From a virus (lineage: Duplodnaviria > Caudoviricetes): a stretch of DNA of 32,189 nucleotides. Under the pieces are notes generated by a model. That model saw nothing but the letters and a program-made list of their open reading frames with translations, searched no databases and was not told where the DNA came from. Every line of letters begins with the position of its first letter. Within the stretch, counting starts at the first letter, position 1. A program made the position numbers and the translations under genes. Location of the stretch: the IMG/VR virus record IMGVR_UViG_3300033076_000047, positions 1 to 32,189 of that record; one strand, given 5' to 3'. This document shows, one piece after another, positions 21,362-32,189 of this stretch.

Positions 21362-21776
21362 TCTCTGGCTTGACGAAAGTTACGTTAATCCCTTGGAGCA
21401 ATGGCGCACCATCAGCCCCCGTAATCTCAGTCTTTGTGCTTTCACGATACTTCTTTGGGAATCGTGCAGCCATTGAGCGTGACCACAATCCTGTGTTCAG
21501 CTTGGCGCTTTCCTTCTCCTCAACCATGTAGCACTGCCCTTGATCTTCCCACCAAGCCTGCTCTAAAACCTTTGCATCTTCCAAGGCGTGCATAAATTCT
21601 TCGTGCTTATCTCTCCACAGGAATAAGACCCGTAAGGAAACGTTAAGGATTGCCGAGATTTGCTCAATAGATTTACCTTTACCGCCAAGCTCAATTACTT
21701 GCTCACAATAAGCAGGGTCATAAAGTGATGGGCGACCTACTGGGCGCTTTTCTTGGGGTTCGGTTGTTTCTGTCAT
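21354..21776 (-). CDS. terS: Terminase small subunit
   Basis: GRPSLY.P.YCE HTH, W...H.EF..A, EITGADGAPL tail; overlaps the terL start. Confidence 0.88.
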   Translation of the reverse strand: MTETTEPQEKRPVGRPSLYDPAYCEQVIELGGKGKSIEQISAILNVSLRVLFLWRDKHEEFMHALEDAKVLEQAWWEDQGQCYMVEEKESAKLNTGLWSRSMAARFPKKYRESTKTEITGADGAPLLQGINVTFVKPENE

Positions 21777-22672
21777 TTGATTGGTTGGTTGTTTCGTTCA
21801 AGAATGGTTAGATGGTTGGGGTCAAAAACAACAAAGTTTCTGGTTCCTTTTTGTTTGTCCCTGCTTAATTGGTCAAGATATTTAATTCCACGAATTCCAG
21901 CTTTTTCAAGCACTTGCTTGCCTTCTTCGCCTTTTCCAACTTTTTCCAATAAATCGCCACCAAGGTCATTCATGTCCATGCCCAAAGATTTCGCTAACTT
22001 ACGCACATGAGCTGGTTGATTCTTTAATGGCTCATCCCAATCCAACATTCTTCTTATGTGAGTATCGGGTAAATCAACTTTATATAAATTTCCAATGTTT
22101 TTTTGATAAGAACCAGATTCAATTGATTGAATTGCTTTTTGAATTAAATCTCTTGATTCTCCGCTGAATGTCGTTTCACCAACTTCAGGCATTACATAAT
22201 TCAAATGACTTAATGCTTTTTCTTTATTTCCCATCATAGAAACAAGATCGGCAGCGTAAGCATCGGGAGTAGAAGTGGGCTTTACTCCACCAGATGAAAT
22301 GTAGGTTTTAGCAACTTCTGGATTTTGAGCCGTATATAGACCTTTTCCATATGCTTTGCTTCCTTCTCCAGTTCCTATTTTTGAAAGATCAAACTTTTCA
22401 AACAAATGAGGCGAACCATGCCAAACAGTCATCCCAACAGGGTTATAAGCCTCACTCATGGTTTGCATGAGCTGTTGACCAGCAGGACCAGTTAGCTTGC
22501 CTGTTTGCTCCAACTCAGCCAATGCTTGGTCGTTCAACTGGTTGAAGTCCCTTGCTCGGTCATTTGCATAGCCCAAAATTTGTTGGAGACTTGCGCCAGG
22601 GTTGCGGATAAAGTCACCGCCCTTGCGTTGGGCTGTGTTGATGGTGCTGTAAATGTCGGCTAGGGTAGGCAT
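21773..22672 (-). CDS. ADP-ribosyltransferase-like protein (resembles the ART domain of phage polyvalent proteins)
   Basis: WHGSPHLFEKFDLSKIGTGEG..AYG.GLY.A....VA..Y, GNLYKVDLPD, LDWD.PL..Q, GIRGIKY.D..SR...GTRNFVVFD. Confidence 0.65.
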   Translation of the reverse strand: MPTLADIYSTINTAQRKGGDFIRNPGASLQQILGYANDRARDFNQLNDQALAELEQTGKLTGPAGQQLMQTMSEAYNPVGMTVWHGSPHLFEKFDLSKIGTGEGSKAYGKGLYTAQNPEVAKTYISSGGVKPTSTPDAYAADLVSMMGNKEKALSHLNYVMPEVGETTFSGESRDLIQKAIQSIESGSYQKNIGNLYKVDLPDTHIRRMLDWDEPLKNQPAHVRKLAKSLGMDMNDLGGDLLEKVGKGEEGKQVLEKAGIRGIKYLDQLSRDKQKGTRNFVVFDPNHLTILERNNQPIK

Positions 22673-23733: not shown

Positions 23734-23941
23734 CGTTCTCCCCTTTCTTTGGGCGACCACGGCGCTTTACTGGCTCAACCGTTACGGTCAAAGATTCCTC
23801 ACCAACTGTGAACTGTTGCTCTTTTGCAACATACTCACCGCACCATTGGTGTTCGGCTTTTCCAATCTGCTCTGGATAACGCAAGCAAACGCCTAGTGCG
23901 TTGCCTTGGAAAAACTTACAAGTCTTACAAAAATTAACCAT
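23714..23941 (-). CDS. Small Cys-rich protein with KRRGRPKK tail
   Basis: CxxC..F...G.C.RYP...WCGEY; AT-hook-like RGRP; start ATG 23941 overlaps the HNH stop. Confidence 0.7.
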   Translation of the reverse strand: MVNFCKTCKFFQGNALGVCLRYPEQIGKAEHQWCGEYVAKEQQFTVGEESLTVTVEPVKRRGRPKKGENDVQASA

Positions 23942-24437
23942 GATTTGCAAACTCTCCATGATTTTTTGATCTGAATTCTTTTACAACTTTTTCAGCTTCT
24001 TGCAAGTCTGTAAACAATCCCAACCAATATGACTTTCCATTAACAGAACATCTAACAGAAAATTTTTGATATTGTTTGTTAAAATTTATGCCTTTTATGC
24101 CAGTTTTGTTTGATTTGTATATTTTTGTGTTATGAGAATTTTCAGAAAAAGTTGCTTTTCTTAAATTTTCAATTTTATTGTTTGATCTGTCACCATCAAT
24201 GTGATCTAAGCATTTAGGCAAATTGCCATGAAACATGGCGTAGATCAAACGATGAACTTGGTATTGTTTACCAAAAATTTTTGTTGTTTTGTAACCGTCA
24301 CCGTTTATACAACCAACTTCTTTGCCTATCAAGTCAGTTCGGTGTCTGGTTGTGTTTTTCCAAAATAGCTTTCCATCACGATAGTCAAACAGATCGTGTA
24401 GTAAGTCTTTTGTCAAGTTAAAATTATTATCAGCCAT
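23934..24437 (-). CDS. HNH homing endonuclease with AP2-like C-terminal domain
   Basis: VHRLIY..FHG...LDHIDGDRSNNKIENLR.AT..EN..N; NKTGIKGI...LGLF; visibly AT-rich. Confidence 0.9.
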   Translation of the reverse strand: MADNNFNLTKDLLHDLFDYRDGKLFWKNTTRHRTDLIGKEVGCINGDGYKTTKIFGKQYQVHRLIYAMFHGNLPKCLDHIDGDRSNNKIENLRKATFSENSHNTKIYKSNKTGIKGINFNKQYQKFSVRCSVNGKSYWLGLFTDLQEAEKVVKEFRSKNHGEFANHG

Positions 24438-24707: not shown

Positions 24708-25017
24708 GCTCTTTGGGCCACTTCCCGTTGGCCTTTAATTTAGCAACGGTCTTTTGATAGGCCATTTGCCACAACATACGGCGCTGTTCTTTATTGAGCC
24801 TAGCGCCTTGGTCTAGTTCCGTGTGGCATTTTTGACACAAAGCGGCTGTGAATTCGTCACTAGCCTTGATTCCTCTTGCCTTGCCCCCTAAGTCTGACCA
24901 GTTGCTATGTGCCGCCTGAGTTTGCCCTTCAATATAGCAATTTTGACAAGGCAATTCAGCAACATTCATCAGATGTTTTCGACTTCTAAAGTATTGTTGT
25001 TTTGGTCTTGCAATCAT
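24685..25017 (-). CDS. Zn-binding His-Me finger protein (DUF968/YbcO-like, nin-region nuclease)
   Basis: RS.KHL..VA.LPC..C, QAAHSN, G.KASD.F...LC..CH...DQG; ATGA-coupled. Confidence 0.7.
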   Translation of the reverse strand: MIARPKQQYFRSRKHLMNVAELPCQNCYIEGQTQAAHSNWSDLGGKARGIKASDEFTAALCQKCHTELDQGARLNKEQRRMLWQMAYQKTVAKLKANGKWPKELNPSCEP

Positions 25018-25634
25018 TTTGATACAGCCATTTCTTGTGACCATCCACGCTTTAGTCTTTGCTGAACTTTGTCTTGGTTCAATCCATTTGCTTCACAGTA
25101 TTCTGACATTGTCATTGGTCTTTCGCCAACAGTAATGATTACATTATTGCTTCTGTTGTTTTGCTGTTCTTTTTGTGTTGCCCATCGACAATTTTCTTTG
25201 TAATAGCCTTTTGTCACATCAATCCTATCAATTGACATTCCTTTTGGACACTCGCCCATGTCTTCAAGAAACTTCTCAAATGAGCCAATCCATTCATCAC
25301 AAACTGTGATTCCAATCGCTCCATATCTGTGATATTTCTTGTTGTTTGGGTTGTAGCATCTTTGTTTCATGCCGCCCCAACTCCTGTAAGTGTTTGTTTC
25401 TGTCATTCCATGTATGCGTTTAGCCCTTCCTTTTTCGGCTGAAACATCAAGAAATAAGCACCCGCAACTTTTTGTCTGTCCAGTTCTCAAACACGAACTA
25501 GAAACATCTTTTGTGTTTCCACATTCACAAAGGCATTTCCAGAATACAGCTCCACTTGAACCTCGTCTGTTTGTTTTTTCAACAACAGTTAAACGACCAA
25601 ACTTTTCACCAAGCAAATTAACAAGCTGCCCCAT
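25014..25634 (-). CDS. HNH-like endonuclease with N-terminal FGRL/CxC zinc module
   Basis: G.KFGRLTV, W.C.CECG, SCGC, W.GMKQRC.NP, YG..GI.VC.EW, SIDRID...GY..ENCRWAT..EQ.NN. Confidence 0.8.
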   Translation of the reverse strand: MGQLVNLLGEKFGRLTVVEKTNRRGSSGAVFWKCLCECGNTKDVSSSCLRTGQTKSCGCLFLDVSAEKGRAKRIHGMTETNTYRSWGGMKQRCYNPNNKKYHRYGAIGITVCDEWIGSFEKFLEDMGECPKGMSIDRIDVTKGYYKENCRWATQKEQQNNRSNNVIITVGERPMTMSEYCEANGLNQDKVQQRLKRGWSQEMAVSK

Positions 25635-25672: not shown

Positions 25673-26146
25673 TCATGCTGTCACAGGCTCAATTTTCCGC
25701 ATTTTCCTTGCTTTGAACTCTTTTTCAATGTCTTGCAATGCCAGCTCCAAAGTTCTAACTGGGCATTGTTTTAACTGCTCATCGTGCAATAAAAGCACAG
25801 TTTCAACAGCCTGAAGCTCTAAGCCAGTAAAAACAAAGCTCTTTCCGCTAATCCCACGTTGAGCCATCGCAAAGATTGCGTCTTGAGCCTGTCCGATTTC
25901 CTCAAGCCAATCACGACCAAGCTGGCGTTTTGCCAAAGCCTCTGCACAATTGACCATCGTAATCAAGTTATCCACATGATGCGTGTCGCCTCTGCCTTCA
26001 CGGATTTCGTCAAAAGAAACGTGGTTTTTAATCATTAGCTTTGTTCCTGCGTCTGGAACGTCTGCGACTTTTTTGAATCCTGAGATAACCCAAGTCAAAG
26101 TGTCCATGCGAACGCCTTTTGGCTTGTATTTGCTTTTTTTACGCAT
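25673..26146 (-). CDS. Conserved-looking hypothetical protein
   Basis: MRKKSKYKPKGVR start at 26146 overlapping the HNH stop; 157 aa helical. Confidence 0.7.
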   Translation of the reverse strand: MRKKSKYKPKGVRMDTLTWVISGFKKVADVPDAGTKLMIKNHVSFDEIREGRGDTHHVDNLITMVNCAEALAKRQLGRDWLEEIGQAQDAIFAMAQRGISGKSFVFTGLELQAVETVLLLHDEQLKQCPVRTLELALQDIEKEFKARKMRKIEPVTA

Positions 26147-26630
26147 TTTGAAAAATTCCATGTGTTTGATAAATTTTTGATGCTTTTATGTAAGCTTTTC
26201 CAGCATCTTCTGCATTTTTATGAGCGCCAAGATTTATTCTTTTTCCTTTTACAAATATTTGCGCTCTCCATGCTTTGTCTTTTTTATTCCACCAAACGCC
26301 TTTATATCCAGATTTGTTATCTCTATGAATCTTTTGGTTTTGTAGATTTTCAAATGCACAAACATCTCTTAAGTTTTCAATTCTGTTATCAGTTCTTATG
26401 CCATTTATGTGGTCAATCATTCCTTCTGGAAATTTTTTATATACATAAAACCATGCTAATCTATGAGCATAGTAAAGCTTACTATCAAAAGATAACGTCA
26501 AATATCCATTCTTTGTTTTTGAGCCTAAAACTTTTCCAGATTTAGAGCCTCTACAAGCTTTTGCTCTTGTGAAAACACCAGTTTCTTTGTTGTAAGAGAT
26601 TTTTTCTGTAAGTTGTAGATAGTCAATCAT
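26139..26630 (-). CDS. HNH homing endonuclease with AP2-like domain
   Basis: YAHRLAWFY....P...IDHING.R.DNRIENLR; NKSGYKGV...W.AQI...LG; GAGGTG RBS before ATG 26630; the longer ORF-track start lies within a structured leader. Confidence 0.9.
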   Translation of the reverse strand: MIDYLQLTEKISYNKETGVFTRAKACRGSKSGKVLGSKTKNGYLTLSFDSKLYYAHRLAWFYVYKKFPEGMIDHINGIRTDNRIENLRDVCAFENLQNQKIHRDNKSGYKGVWWNKKDKAWRAQIFVKGKRINLGAHKNAEDAGKAYIKASKIYQTHGIFQNA

Positions 26631-26632
26631 GT

Positions 26633-26720
26633 CGCACCTCGTTATTGGTGGAAGCGTTACTAAGAGAATGTGGCAGGGCGGTAACGAATCGCCTTTTCCC
26701 CCGCTAAAGGTAGCCACGCC
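26633..26720 (-). ncRNA. Candidate cis-regulatory three-way-junction RNA, copy A
   Basis: GTGGC-TA-[CCTT-TAGC-GGGG]-GAAAA-[GGCG-ATTCGTTAC-CGCC]-CT-GCCAC; loop complementary to GTAACG (26660-26655) and TAACGA (26644-26639, overlaps RBS); TAAAAT just upstream. Confidence 0.65.
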
Positions 26721-26726
26721 CATATT

Positions 26727-27131
26727 TTACTCAAAAGTGATGCCGTTTGTAGCGCCCCAAGCATAAAGCCATTCAATAAACTGGCTTCCTTGTTCTTGCG
26801 TAAAGTTTCTTGTTTGAAATCCAAGTTGAACGATGCCTGTATTGTCCAAGTTAGGAACAACTTTCCCACTACTTTGCCCAATCTCACGCATAAACTGATC
26901 TACTAAAAGGCGCTTAAAGTCTTCTGCTGACCATTTAGCACCCATGTGCTGCGCCTGTTTAGCAATCTGTCCAATCAATTCGTGATACAGCTTCTCGGTG
27001 TCACGGCTTTTGCTCTGCGCCTTAATCTCAAGGGTAAGTTTCTTGCCAGACTTCAACGATTCTTTGACTTTAGGCCAAAGACCGTTCATCAATGCTTGCG
27101 CTTGTTCGTAGCTGTCAAGGTCGTACTTCAT
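26727..27131 (-). CDS. ninB: NinB/Orf family recombination protein
   Basis: KSR...KLYH..IG.IA.Q, W..EDFKRL, VVP.LD..G.V.LG..T..F.......IEWLYAWGA.NGI.F. Confidence 0.8.
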   Translation of the reverse strand: MKYDLDSYEQAQALMNGLWPKVKESLKSGKKLTLEIKAQSKSRDTEKLYHELIGQIAKQAQHMGAKWSAEDFKRLLVDQFMREIGQSSGKVVPNLDNTGIVQLGFQTRNFTQEQGSQFIEWLYAWGATNGITFE

Positions 27132-29426: not shown

Positions 29427-29704
29427 AACGCTTCCTGTGCAAATTTCAACGCAACCTGGTTTACATAAATTCCAGCTTGATGCTTATCAATGATGCGTTT
29501 TGCCCATGCTCTTGGGTCGCCACGATACTTGTCAAGCTCTGGCATATAGGCTGGCGCTTGTCTGCAATAAGAATGAAAACACGGTCCGCACATTGAGCCA
29601 TATTTAATCAATGTGTCTTGTTGCGTCATGTTTGTGCATTGAGAACAAGGCTTCAAAGGGCTTGAAACGCTGTTGGCTACGTCTTTAGGTTTTGCGAAAG
29701 TCAT
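29423..29704 (-). CDS. Small Zn-finger protein downstream of the initiator
   Basis: CxxC...CxxC, DP.AWAKRI...........FA.EAL; ATGA-coupled to the replication gene. Confidence 0.7.
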   Translation of the reverse strand: MTFAKPKDVANSVSSPLKPCSQCTNMTQQDTLIKYGSMCGPCFHSYCRQAPAYMPELDKYRGDPRAWAKRIIDKHQAGIYVNQVALKFAQEAL

Positions 29705-30468
29705 TTTGTATATTTCCCATCAATGATTTTTTGAAAGTTTGTTGCGTTGACTACCCATTCAAGATCAGGTCGCCACGTTCGACCATTACTTTCAAATCCG
29801 TTAGCCAAAGTTGTGTCGTTAGCTATGTAGCCAAAAAATGAATCCCACCACCTTATACCGTCTTCTGTGGTCTTGTAGCCATCAGGAGAATAGGCCGATG
29901 GTTTGCCAGCTTGAATCCAACGCTGCTTCATGTTGGTTTGGCGCGAACCTTCCCATGACCTCGGCTGCGTCAGGTGTGGGAGATGCTTTCCCCAAAGCAA
30001 CAAAAGCTCTTTATGTGGACAGGGCGGGAAGGCACTTCCCGACAAAGAAGGTTTACCTTCTTTAATAATTGGTTCTTGGTTAGTGGTTAGTGGTTTATGG
30101 TTAGGTGGCGCTTCGTCTACGACCTGTTCACGGTTCGTGCGTTTTTCTTTACGCTTCGCTTCTCTTTCAGTAGCGATTCGTTTGTTTGTGTCTGCGTTCT
30201 TGTGATAGTGCAGCAGTTCCTCAAGAATCCTGTCTTGCACATAACACCCATCTTTATCAAGCACAAAAAACCTGCTTAAAACAAACTTAACAGCTTCAAC
30301 CTCTGCCTCGGTCGATGCCCAAGTCCATTCCAATGCTTGTTCTAAAGTTGGGAAAACTTCACGGTCGTAACACGAATCAATAAGAAGCGTGTACGCTCCG
30401 TGTTGAAGCATGGTCAGCCGACCAGCTTTTTTGGCGTAATCGCCAAGATTGCGTTTGTAGTAGTGCAT
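29701..30468 (-). CDS. Replication initiator-like protein, DUF1376/YdaU N-terminus
   Basis: MHYYKRNLGDY....L...HGAY.LL.D..Y..E; C-terminal W..DLEW.....NF.KII.G.Y; lambda O-like position. Confidence 0.8.
   Translation of the reverse strand: MHYYKRNLGDYAKKAGRLTMLQHGAYTLLIDSCYDREVFPTLEQALEWTWASTEAEVEAVKFVLSRFFVLDKDGCYVQDRILEELLHYHKNADTNKRIATEREAKRKEKRTNREQVVDEAPPNHKPLTTNQEPIIKEGKPSLSGSAFPPCPHKELLLLWGKHLPHLTQPRSWEGSRQTNMKQRWIQAGKPSAYSPDGYKTTEDGIRWWDSFFGYIANDTTLANGFESNGRTWRPDLEWVVNATNFQKIIDGKYTK
30070..30104. repeat. Five tandem 7-bp TGGTTNN repeats inside the initiator gene (candidate origin element)
   Basis: TGGTTCT-TGGTTAG-TGGTTAG-TGGTTTA-TGGTTAG next to AT-rich TTTAATAAT. Confidence 0.6.
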
Positions 30469-30470
30469 AA

Positions 30471-30567
30471 AGCCCGCTTTTTAACAGCCCCTTTGATGAA
30501 GAAACGGCGGCAGGAGAAGGGGTAACTCTTTTCGGTCTGCTCATGACTTCAGACCTAGCCGTGTTTC
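30471..30567 (-). ncRNA. Candidate cis-regulatory three-way-junction RNA, copy B
   Basis: CGGC-TA-[GGTCTG-N10-CAGACC]-GAAAA-[GAG-TTACCCCTT-CTC]-CT-GCCG with outer GAAAC/GTTTC; loop complementary to AAGGGG (30493-30488) and imperfectly to AAGCGGG at the RBS (30479-30473). Confidence 0.65.
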
Positions 30568-30572
30568 AAAAC

Positions 30573-30581
30573 ATTATATCA
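30573..30581 (-). promoter_or_regulatory. Extended -10 promoter for the replication leader
   Basis: Perfect TG-A-TATAAT, 5 nt before the first stem of RNA copy B. Confidence 0.7.
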
Positions 30582-30728
30582 GTTGAACCACAAGTAAAAC
30601 CCGTGAAGGATGCCGATTGGAAAAAAGATAGCGCCAGCCACCAAGAAACCCCAAAACCCTTGTGCAAAACAAGTGAAGATGTGAGTTAGCCAAGCAGCTA
30701 GCACAGAAAAGCCAATGATGTAGCCCAT
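30579..30728 (-). CDS. Small two-TM membrane protein (49 aa)
   Basis: Own translation MGYIIGFSVLAAWLTHIFTCFAQGFWGFLVAGAIFFPIGILHGFYLWFN; TGATG coupling; AAGGA RBS. Confidence 0.75.
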   Translation of the reverse strand: MGYIIGFSVLAAWLTHIFTCFAQGFWGFLVAGAIFFPIGILHGFYLWFN

Positions 30729-31033: not shown

Positions 31034-31185
31034 CAGAAACAGCTCGTTGTGCAGGATTGACCGTTACCGATGCAAGTTGTTGTGCAAGTCACAGTCTTGC
31101 CGTTCATCATGTAGGTGTTGGTATACATCTGTGCATTGGCGCTAATTGCCAGCGTAGCCAAGATGATTGCTAGTGCTTTTTTCAT
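31033..31185 (-). CDS. Secreted Cys-rich peptide (50 aa)
   Basis: Own translation MKKALAIILATLAISANA-QMYTNTYMMNGKTVTCTTTCIGNGQSCTTSCF; Sec signal with A-x-A site; coupled to both neighbours. Confidence 0.75.
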   Translation of the reverse strand: MKKALAIILATLAISANAQMYTNTYMMNGKTVTCTTTCIGNGQSCTTSCF

Positions 31186-31352
31186 TTTTTGCCTTTCAGT
31201 AGTTCAGGGAAAAGAAGTTTGATTTGCCAGATGCGTGATTGTGGAATTTTGTTGTTCTCCTTCCACAGCCACACAGTGCCTCGTTTAACTCCAAGAATAC
31301 GCGCAAGCTCACTCTGTGAGCCAGCACGATTGATAAGATTATTGATGTCCAT
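31182..31352 (-). CDS. Cro-like HTH repressor
   Basis: AGSQSELARILGVKRGTV..W....IP..R..QI....PE; start ATG 31352 has no RBS (leaderless). Confidence 0.85.
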   Translation of the reverse strand: MDINNLINRAGSQSELARILGVKRGTVWLWKENNKIPQSRIWQIKLLFPELLKGKK

Positions 31353-31358
31353 TTCGTT

Positions 31359-31387
31359 AGTGTATAGAAAAATTGACATAAATACAA
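31359..31387 (-). promoter_or_regulatory. Sigma70-type promoter for the cro-like gene (leaderless transcript)
   Basis: TTGTAT-N17-TACACT-N6-ATG. Confidence 0.7.
31361..31378. promoter_or_regulatory. Operator-like imperfect palindrome 1
   Basis: TGTATAGAAAAATTGACA, overlapping the leftward promoter spacer and -10. Confidence 0.6.
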
Positions 31388-31412
31388 CACATCTAAAAAT
31401 ATTTTTGCTTTG

Positions 31413-31442
31413 TTGGATTTTGTCTAGAAAACTTGATATAGT
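31413..31442 (+). promoter_or_regulatory. Rightward promoter for the recombination arm
   Basis: TTGGAT-N18-TATAGT with extended TG (TGATATAGT). Confidence 0.6.
31421..31438. promoter_or_regulatory. Operator-like imperfect palindrome 2
   Basis: TGTCTAGAAAACTTGATA, 15/18 identical to site 1 and 60 bp away. Confidence 0.6.
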
Positions 31443-31487
31443 TCAGTCATCCCGTAGCGCAACGCAAGCGGTAACTTAGGAAATCAA

Positions 31488-31682
31488 ATGAAACTCAACG
31501 ACACAACCCGCACATTCCCACGCACTCTGGCTGAGGCGTTTCCTGACAATGTTGAAGACCAGCAACGTCTGCAACAAGGCGAATGGATGGAACAACACCA
31601 GCCAGACCATGAAAAGTATCTCAACATCGTTTATTCCTTTGCTGCTGGCTTTGTCGTGGCAATGATTGTTTTCGGGGGTTAA
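31488..31682 (+). CDS. Hypothetical protein with C-terminal TM helix
   Basis: 64 aa; TRTFPRTL.EAFP motif; AGGA RBS; first gene of the rightward arm. Confidence 0.7.
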   Translation: MKLNDTTRTFPRTLAEAFPDNVEDQQRLQQGEWMEQHQPDHEKYLNIVYSFAAGFVVAMIVFGG

Positions 31683-31683
31683 T

Positions 31684-32189
31684 ATGAAAAACATCGCATC
31701 TGCTTTGGTCAAAGCACAAAAAGCCTTTGGCCCTGCTTTAAAGACCTCTACAAACCCTCATTTTCGTTGTAAGTATGCAGACCTCTCCGCTTGCGTTGAG
31801 GCTGTCATTGACGCTTTAAACAACAATGGCATCTTCTTGCTGCAAAAGAACTACGACTGCGCTGACGGCATCATGTGCGAGACAGTTTTTGTCCATGAGT
31901 CAGGCGAAATGTTGGAGTGTGGAATTGTTCACTTTCCAGCCGTAAAAAAAGACCCTCAAGGCTATGCTTCCGCATTGACCTATGCTCGGCGCTATTCATT
32001 GATGGCTGCTTGCGGTATCGCTCCAGAAGATGACGATGGCAACAAAGCCTCACGCCCTGCGCCTGTTGATTCAAACTTGATGGCTGACCACATCACAGCA
32101 ATTCAAGACGCTACCGATGAGGCAACGCTTAAAGCAGCCTACCAAGCCGCTTACAAAGCCTGTGGCACAGATGCAAACTGGCAAAAGAA
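31684..32189 (+). CDS. erf: ERF-family single-strand annealing protein, truncated at the right edge
   Basis: Own translation MKNIASALVKAQKAFGPALKTSTNPHF..KYADL...HESGE...DPQGYASALTYARRYSL.A..GIAPEDDDGN; missing from the ORF track because there is no stop in the window. Confidence 0.92.
   Translation, partial: MKNIASALVKAQKAFGPALKTSTNPHFRCKYADLSACVEAVIDALNNNGIFLLQKNYDCADGIMCETVFVHESGEMLECGIVHFPAVKKDPQGYASALTYARRYSLMAACGIAPEDDDGNKASRPAPVDSNLMADHITAIQDATDEATLKAAYQAAYKACGTDANWQK

Follow-up and report, generated by a model that had tools for sequence, protein, structure and literature searches.

A leader RNA of the int-alpA family ahead of a phage replication initiator gene, with a variable loop matched to two downstream sites and a candidate dimerisation loop

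In IncI, IncB and IncL/M plasmids, as in the phage leader described here (copy B), a hairpin loop pairs near the Shine-Dalgarno (SD) sequence of a replication initiator gene, and the loop code could give incompatibility; according to the portion of PMC4705826 drawn on here, IncI-type rep has one activating target, to which a leader peptide gives access and which an antisense Inc RNA from the opposite strand blocks. Copy B differs in having two targets, no conserved leader peptide and no antisense signal. The CI RNA of P4 and the C4 RNAs of P1 and P7 resemble int-alpA, the family to which copy B was assigned, in being multi-stem RNAs of phage leaders whose variable loop gives specificity and covers sites near the ribosome binding site of their own operon (PMC4825925, PMC5320573). 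Unlike C4 and CI, int-alpA has both targets downstream, with one loop reading both sites, and the cited portions of these two papers describe no self-complementary loop for C4 or CI. IsrK of Gifsy-1 acts in trans on its own longer transcript, as is proposed below for int-alpA, but arises at a terminator, has long complementarity and activates (excerpts of PMC4825925), whereas in int-alpA the U-run that follows the closing stem is weak and no Rfam family besides int-alpA was matched. Rows of a table in PMC2864571 are cited beside IncI rep, CI, C4 and IsrK for a variable loop near the ribosome binding site. Judged by analogy, our element appears to work like IncI rep control, P4 CI, P1 C4 and IsrK in this respect, but the defining traits of these systems that were looked for in the sequence were not found. 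Among RNAs that dimerise, the HIV-1 DIS carries a 6-nt palindrome flanked by purines in a hairpin loop, likewise copy B, and the GACG tetraloop of MoMuLV kisses through two pairs, likewise several relatives of copy B; self-kissing is known for GACG loops as well as for loops with a 6-nt palindrome (PMC7357161). The retroviral loops differ in their unrelated sequence and host and in their packaging role, and the likeness is a structural analogy only.

Rfam types the int-alpA family (RF02996) as Gene; sRNA. The motif is presumably a product of a survey of 224 motifs, and we take its name to imply an integrase gene upstream and alpA downstream, a matter of context rather than a scoring criterion. 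The family is not named in the main text of PMC5737381, as far as that text was available; it is a table row in the accessible part of PMC12370729, and in that of PMC13612085 "int-alpA" is used for a gene order. In our literature search, with most subscription papers and the supplement of PMC5737381 outside it, int-alpA was not the subject of any study, and neither a function nor a second target nor a loop that pairs with itself was described for it. The RF02996 model extends to the first loop target (T1) but not to the second (T2), and its consensus loop and 3′ end are complementary, so that the loop-T1 pairing may already be in the supplement of PMC5737381, which may hold the pseudoknot or the self-complementary loop.

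On comparison of sequences, the family has a scaffold, covariation of one loop (P3) with T1 and with T2, a T2 that lies over the ribosome-binding window, and palindromic loops on another stem (P2). We propose, tentatively and as a whole model that could easily be wrong in some part, that the int-alpA leader senses the concentration of its own RNA and represses translation of the initiator.

Layout of the leader, its family and its genomic setting

The window analysed is a whole virus record of 32,189 bases, 93% complete, with P22-like portal and coat genes. Copy B lies on its minus strand, between a 49-aa ORF (upstream) and a 255-aa initiator-type gene (downstream), and a second copy, copy A, precedes a nuclease gene. 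Their features are as follows, read from the sequence where no other evidence is given.

30579..30728, minus strand: 49-aa hydrophobic ORF, last in a cro-like/MazG-like gene row (ORF and Pfam/PHROG scans)
30581-30573, minus strand: extended −10 promoter-like element TGnTATAAT, whose first three letters are the stop codon of the 49-aa upstream ORF
30501..30567, minus strand: copy B three-way junction RNA of the int-alpA family, in the order P1, UA, P2, GAAAA, P3, CU, P1′ (Rfam RF02996, 35.8 bits; covariation)
30567-30558, minus strand: copy B P1 5′ strand, beginning 5 nt after the −10 element
30555-30534, minus strand: copy B P2 stem-loop
30540..30549, minus strand: copy B P2 loop, predicted self-kissing (dimer) loop, with a 6-nt palindrome at 30546-30541
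30533-30529, minus strand: copy B GAAAA junction strand
30528-30514, minus strand: copy B P3 stem-loop, with a 3-bp stem
30517..30525, minus strand: copy B P3 loop, the variable address, with complements at T1 and T2
30511-30501, minus strand: copy B P1 3′ strand
30494..30500, minus strand: copy B 7-nt pyrimidine-rich linker from P1 to T1, poor as a terminator U-run
30488..30493, minus strand: copy B T1, AAGGGG, the proximal P3-loop target and predicted decoy (six Watson-Crick pairs, −9.7 kcal/mol; H-type pseudoknot geometry)
30473..30479, minus strand: copy B T2, AAGCGGG, with one bulged C (−5.9 kcal/mol), overlapping the ribosome-binding position
29701..30468, minus strand: replication initiator-type gene, 255 aa, with a DUF1376 N-terminus (Pfam PF07120, E 3e-18) and a lambda-O-like C-terminus (PHROGs 3992, 5810, 345)
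26635..26729, minus strand: copy A leader, with a −10-like hexamer at 26729-26724 and the junction from 26721 (Rfam 35.4 bits)
26689-26681 and 26660-26655, minus strand: copy A P3 loop and T1; the copy A P2 loop is UAGC
26644-26638, minus strand: copy A T2, in the loop of an anti-SD hairpin
26139..26630, minus strand: HNH-AP2 endonuclease gene downstream of copy A (Pfam HNH_3 and AP2)

The structure given for copy B by the first-pass annotation, TGnTATAAT followed after a 5-nt gap by the three-way scaffold, holds letter for letter and at the spacing it gave, as does its match of the P3 loop to AAGGGG 7 nt past the structure and to the bulged AAGCGGG at the ribosome-binding position. Its interpretation as a whole is supported in part; it lacked the family name and the self-complementary P2 loop. 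T2 ends 4 nt before the ATG at 30468 and is partly held in a weak hairpin with 30487-30483 (−2.8 kcal/mol). The start codon of a 55-aa ORF (30544-30377) lies inside the P2 palindrome.

An Rfam scan of the window returned exactly two matches at E ≤ 1, both to int-alpA. Copy B (30565-30489) scored 35.8 bits, which equals the gathering cut-off (E 5e-4 against all families), and copy A (26720-26655) scored 35.4 bits, just under it. The UA, GAAAA and CU linkers of the int-alpA three-way junction are all present in copy B. Folding energy by itself falls short of significance (z = −1.6, with 14 of 200 shuffles folding as well), and the 3-bp P3 stem is absent from the centroid fold; copy B is therefore called real on the strength of its Rfam match and of covariation, with 96% of cells paired among 24 close relatives, none of 500 shuffles as high and slid controls at 36-55%. 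Other candidates (a hammerhead-like topology, C4, IsrK and repZ) gave no Rfam match. The element is real, and is a variant of a catalogued orphan RNA family with a specific proposed mechanism. It is like int-alpA in scaffold and score and unlike a typical member in its long P2 with a 6-nt palindrome, its bulged T2, the initiator downstream and the lack of an upstream integrase: in place of the context that the name implies, copy B has the 49-aa ORF and a MazG-like gene upstream. Among cellular copies scanned, an integrase gene lay directly upstream in 17 of 35.

Relatives were collected with a pattern, built from this window, in which the scaffold was fixed and the loops were free. An estimated 4,600 matches exist in IMG/VR, of which 121 loci were returned from 2 of its 64 parts, and most sampled matches were real; 19 of 20 pattern loci compared with Rfam matched int-alpA and 12 passed the cut-off. 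The exact copy B pattern had no match in viral contigs, and blastn of copy B against named phages gave only 29-nt chance matches. Both stems were found in 161 of 195 matches in the pooled phage sets (140 unique). Among cultured phages, Enterobacter phage Tyrion carries the RNA. A pattern scan of GTDB gave 122 matches, 115 of them without the two stems and dropped as chance, leaving seven. A separate cellular set was made of matches to the Rfam model, 51 of 68 being parsed, with four visible misparses (L346, L347, L371, L393) kept in the counts; int-alpA occurred in 25/121, 7/121 and 9/121 genomes in the three cellular samples.

Downstream ORFs in a scaffold-only scan (n = 85, PHROG tally) comprised 52 initiator-type, 11 HNH and four other genes and 18 without a match, bearing out the expectation that initiator and nuclease genes follow homologous leaders, although the sample is biased toward the subfamily of this window since the pattern was built from it. 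Other members precede YhcG nucleases, ORF6N, Rha and IS605 OrfB (TnpB). Two more HNH-type genes of the window (23934-24437 and 25014-25634) have no int-alpA match ahead of them, and a 299-aa ORF ahead of its terminase genes (21773-22672) gave weak ADP-ribosyltransferase-like (ART-PolyVal, below cut-off) and head-protein matches.

Several further settings were noted among the relatives. At L132-L135, L141, L145, L162, L190, L193, L199 and L200 (about 1268-1500) the RNA precedes a 76-77-aa ORF without family matches, whose stop abuts or overlaps the initiator start, so that control would go through translational coupling. Three initiator relatives (L155, L178, L203; about 1370-1500) have an unrelated leader in the same slot, without an Rfam match. 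In it a hairpin has a loop of UUGGCG or UUGGUCG type, the complement of that loop lies within a multibranch fold, and the stem that closes the structure carries a U-run. This leader also recalls C4. Its loop recalls the IncI target loop as it appears in a reference title in PMC4705826. One int-alpA copy (L330 886-800, minus strand, genome G025) lies between an IS200/605 left-end-like hairpin and an IS605 OrfB (TnpB) gene, and its T1 and T2 are exact repeats. Genome G248 has twelve matches (L369, L374-L384), several of which precede YhcG, ORF6N or Rha with different P2 palindromes; the targets of its tandem copies L374 and L375 are degenerate. In chromosomal islands (L342 1592-2287, similarly L338-L400; L328) the next gene is usually an ORF of ~200-250 aa without a Pfam match, followed at L342 by a small ORF that looks HTH/AlpA-like by eye.

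In the phage set a −10-like hexamer stood in 109 of 132 distinct upstream regions, with 12 nt to the scaffold core as the commonest spacing; shuffles with the stop codon held fixed gave 50. The claim of a promoter-like −10 at fixed spacing was thus upheld for the phage copies, and an artefact of the stop codon was rejected. A strict −35/−10 promoter scan of the window did not list the 30573..30581 element. Cellular copies showed a small excess (18/51 vs 11.7), which, with many copies lying just behind an integrase gene, indicates that a dedicated promoter is not universal; read-through transcripts from the cro-like/MazG-like row would carry the RNA too. The scan of 26 ORFs in the window turned up no CI-like repressor, and this may be the reason for an initiator with a promoter and an RNA leader to itself. 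At 31182-31700 the cro-like gene and a divergent erf gene have only a 64-aa ORF between them.

The first-pass annotation had likened the element to pseudoknot-controlled rep translation in IncI/IncB plasmids, in which the pseudoknot would activate the gene and an antisense RNA from the opposite strand would block it. A loop-target pseudoknot does lie ahead of an initiator gene, and among 80 initiator relatives the scaffold was directly upstream in 63, ahead of a short ORF adjoining the initiator in 11 and absent in five, with one too short (74 of the 79 evaluable relatives carry it). Antisense −10 elements, on the other hand, were depleted (10/146 vs 47) and absent from the promoter scan of the window, giving no support to an antisense promoter; a leader peptide is likewise not supported, an AUG falling inside P2 in only 39 of 147 records; the repZ pseudoknot family had no Rfam match in the window, where only int-alpA was matched at E ≤ 1; and there are two targets, not one. 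Control of this kind is very improbable, and the comparison stands as an analogy only.

The P3 loop and its two downstream targets

In the phage relatives, 68 of 76 distinct P3 loops form at least five Watson-Crick pairs with T1, a site 10-18 nt after the scaffold (loop-swapped null 7.4, maximum 17). In 117 of 132 records this helix runs right up to P3, with every loop base at that junction paired, and in 117 it leaves two to four bases on the other side. Such spacing is the geometry of an H-type pseudoknot. Pairing with T2 was found for 44 of 69 distinct loops (null 7.9, maximum 18). T2 typically lies 10-17 nt beyond T1 and ends 0-16 nt before the start codon; among the 116 of 129 records whose T2 duplex is −3 kcal/mol or better, it overlaps the −14 to −4 ribosome-binding window in 107. 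It is bulged in 31 records, and 25 of these bulges are a single C or U, as in copy B, in line with the earlier proposal of an AAGCGGG-type second target at the ribosome binding site, now with a recurrent pyrimidine bulge. Upstream of the scaffold, complements of at least 6 nt were found for 9 of 83 P3 loops against 8.2 expected, so that the targets on both sides that mark C4 and CI are not present.

Both pairings recurred outside the phage sets. The seven GTDB matches with both stems (of 122) had T1 in 7/7 and a T2 of at least five pairs in 5/7, and the 51 parsed cellular copies had T1 in 31/40 (null 7.5) and T2 in 25/31 (null 8.0). Phage, GTDB and cellular sets therefore agree in supporting an unchanging scaffold whose variable loop covaries with its targets, and homologous leaders keep the loop-target complementarity whose loss the first-pass annotation would have counted against itself. 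Translational control through T2 is very probable.

The codes are numerous and turn over rapidly. The T1 codes number 68, of which 34 differ from one another by two letters or more, and a tree of 49 initiators requires at least 25 changes each in the P2 core and the P3 loop, with rows of identical N-termini differing in both; these changes look like exchange of a few alleles rather than repeated independent origin. A single P2 loop is found alongside 22 distinct P3 loops, and P2 therefore falls short of a strict code for specificity. Within the window, loop and targets had been said to change together between the copies, and each loop indeed has its own T1 and T2, that of copy A included. That the copies would not cross-talk is correct for T1 (cognate −5.6 kcal/mol for A and −9.7 for B; crossed −0.9 and −1.3), holds weakly for T2 (cognate −5.9 and −5.9 vs crossed −4.0 and −3.7 kcal/mol, a margin of ~2), and fails as a general rule: among 54 same-genome pairs in cellular genomes, 12 share the P3 loop, five the P2 loop and two both, and strict orthogonality of co-resident copies was rejected. 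Genome G248 has five copies with one common P3 loop under four different P2 loops. In two-copy phage records both loops differed in 4/4, too few to show selection.

Downstream genes of the kinds that are needed in small amounts, and the fact that no trigger is required, would suit a static attenuator, in which loop-T2 pairing lowers translation by a fixed factor, T1 tunes it, and dimerisation stabilises or stores the RNA. A weak ribosome binding site would do the same more cheaply, and three covarying code sites with fast code turnover would be left unexplained; we regard this alternative as improbable.

The sign of the control is less firmly indicated than its site. We infer that the element limits expression, and repression by T2 pairing is moderately better favoured than activation. 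T2 lies in the loop of a pre-start hairpin in 35 of 116 records, copy A among them, so that binding could open rather than close the site and would fit activation too. Downstream hairpins were also stronger than those of shuffles (−2.5 vs −1.7 ± 0.14 kcal/mol), the short form of IsrK activates in trans (PMC4825925, portion cited), and IncI rep is activated by an SD-adjacent pseudoknot (PMC4705826, portion cited). In a model of opposite sign, a lone leader would be off, through a weak hairpin over the ribosome binding site or its own loop on T2, and dimerisation would switch translation on; synthesis of the initiator or nuclease would then wait for a threshold amount of RNA, reached through growing numbers of genome copies or through co-infection. 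This model is unlikely, since T2 falls in the −14 to −4 window in 107/116 records and 70/116 have no hairpin of −2 kcal/mol or stronger, and pairing would then cover the site. Two outliers, L083 and L069, have T1 but no near T2; the start codon of L083 is 58 nt downstream and L069 has a terminator-like hairpin after T1.

The P2 loop as a predicted dimerisation site

Palindromes of at least 4 nt were present in 27 of 37 distinct P2 loops, against 12.2 ± 2.6 in shuffles (maximum 22 in 2000), and in 16 of 28 distinct cellular P2 loops against 6.8 ± 2.0. P3 loops showed no such excess (7/76 vs 12.5). Twelve different 4-nt palindrome cores occur among the P2 loops, and of the 20 of 62 distinct loops without a 4-nt palindrome, 16 end in GC or CG, GACG included. 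In 24 gap-free aligned relatives the two central adjacent loop bases are complementary in 24/24 (AU 17, GC 7) and the flanking pair in 21/24 (CG 8, AU 7, GC 6), counts that are inflated by relatedness of the rows. A self-complementary apical loop with compensatory variation, as expected of a kissing-loop homodimer, is thus found.

Adjacent bases cannot pair within one strand. Of 28 palindromes, 25 are displaced to the 3′ side of their loop and none to the 5′ side, and on both counts pairing between two molecules is the simplest reading. A DNA operator or a dyad as the origin of the palindrome is disfavoured by the 12 cores and by the same placement. For copy B itself the predicted gain from a P2 dimer stands out only modestly, 18 of 300 loop shuffles doing equally well; its loop would pair with itself at −6.6 kcal/mol, copies A and B would not pair through these loops, and the copy A loop offers at most two pairs. 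Dimerisation through P2 is probable.

A simpler alternative would be a switch acting purely in cis, in which the P3 loop toggles between T1 and T2 on one molecule through folding kinetics, a host RNA-binding protein or a small ligand bound at the junction, and the P2 palindrome serves something else. Both targets can be reached in cis, the junction has conserved letters, and the T1/T2 layout is comparable to that of riboswitch expression platforms; no riboswitch family was matched by Rfam in the window. Against this, no more than 27 of 51 cellular copies have GAAAA as their 5-nt junction strand, the downstream proteins are mutually unrelated, making their product unlikely as a ligand, and a cis switch would explain neither the 12 self-complementary cores nor the diversity of T1 codes. 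It too is unlikely, to about the same degree as the model of opposite sign.

Proposed mechanism and implications

In the model that we prefer, in which the leader counts its own RNA and represses, the P3 loop of a lone transcript would be captured first by T1 as a pseudoknot, leaving the transcript's own ribosome binding site free, and the gene would be translated. As transcripts or processed leader fragments accumulate, two copies would dock through their P2 loops, and the partner's P3 loop would then pair with T2 and block the ribosome; the dimer would turn one loop facing two sites into two loops facing two sites. Expression would come as an early burst that is then shut off, and a co-infecting phage with a matching code would be repressed as well.

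The energies place some constraints on this scheme. T1 forms the stronger duplex in 88 of 129 records and T2 in 37 (mean −8.2 kcal/mol for T1 and −6.9 for T2), and because T2 is on average the weaker, two full-length leaders could exchange pairing only at a cost in energy, unless docking made up for it. A partner with a free loop would be easiest to obtain if a predicted fragment were cut between P1 and T1. At least six U in the 8 nt before T1 were found in only 39 of 139 records, and the terminator listing for the window has none at the linker (30494..30500); with so weak a U-run after P1, termination is unlikely to supply the short form, and the model has to assume processing.

The orphan Rfam family gains by this a concrete and specific mechanism proposal. 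More broadly, and with somewhat less assurance than for the initiator leader itself, int-alpA RNAs might be widespread self-counting leaders, in which a palindromic loop finds other copies and an address loop moves from a decoy to the ribosome binding site, so that phages and mobile elements would meter initiators, homing nucleases and TnpB by their own transcript level, without a protein or an antisense gene. If this is true, RNA immunity groups would follow from interchangeable dock and address modules, and control of translation through RNA homodimers would give lambdoid-like phages a new means of timing the initiation of replication and of detecting co-infection. Synthetic biology would also gain an orthogonal part ready for use, in the form of a 100-nt module with two codes that exists in dozens of natural variants.
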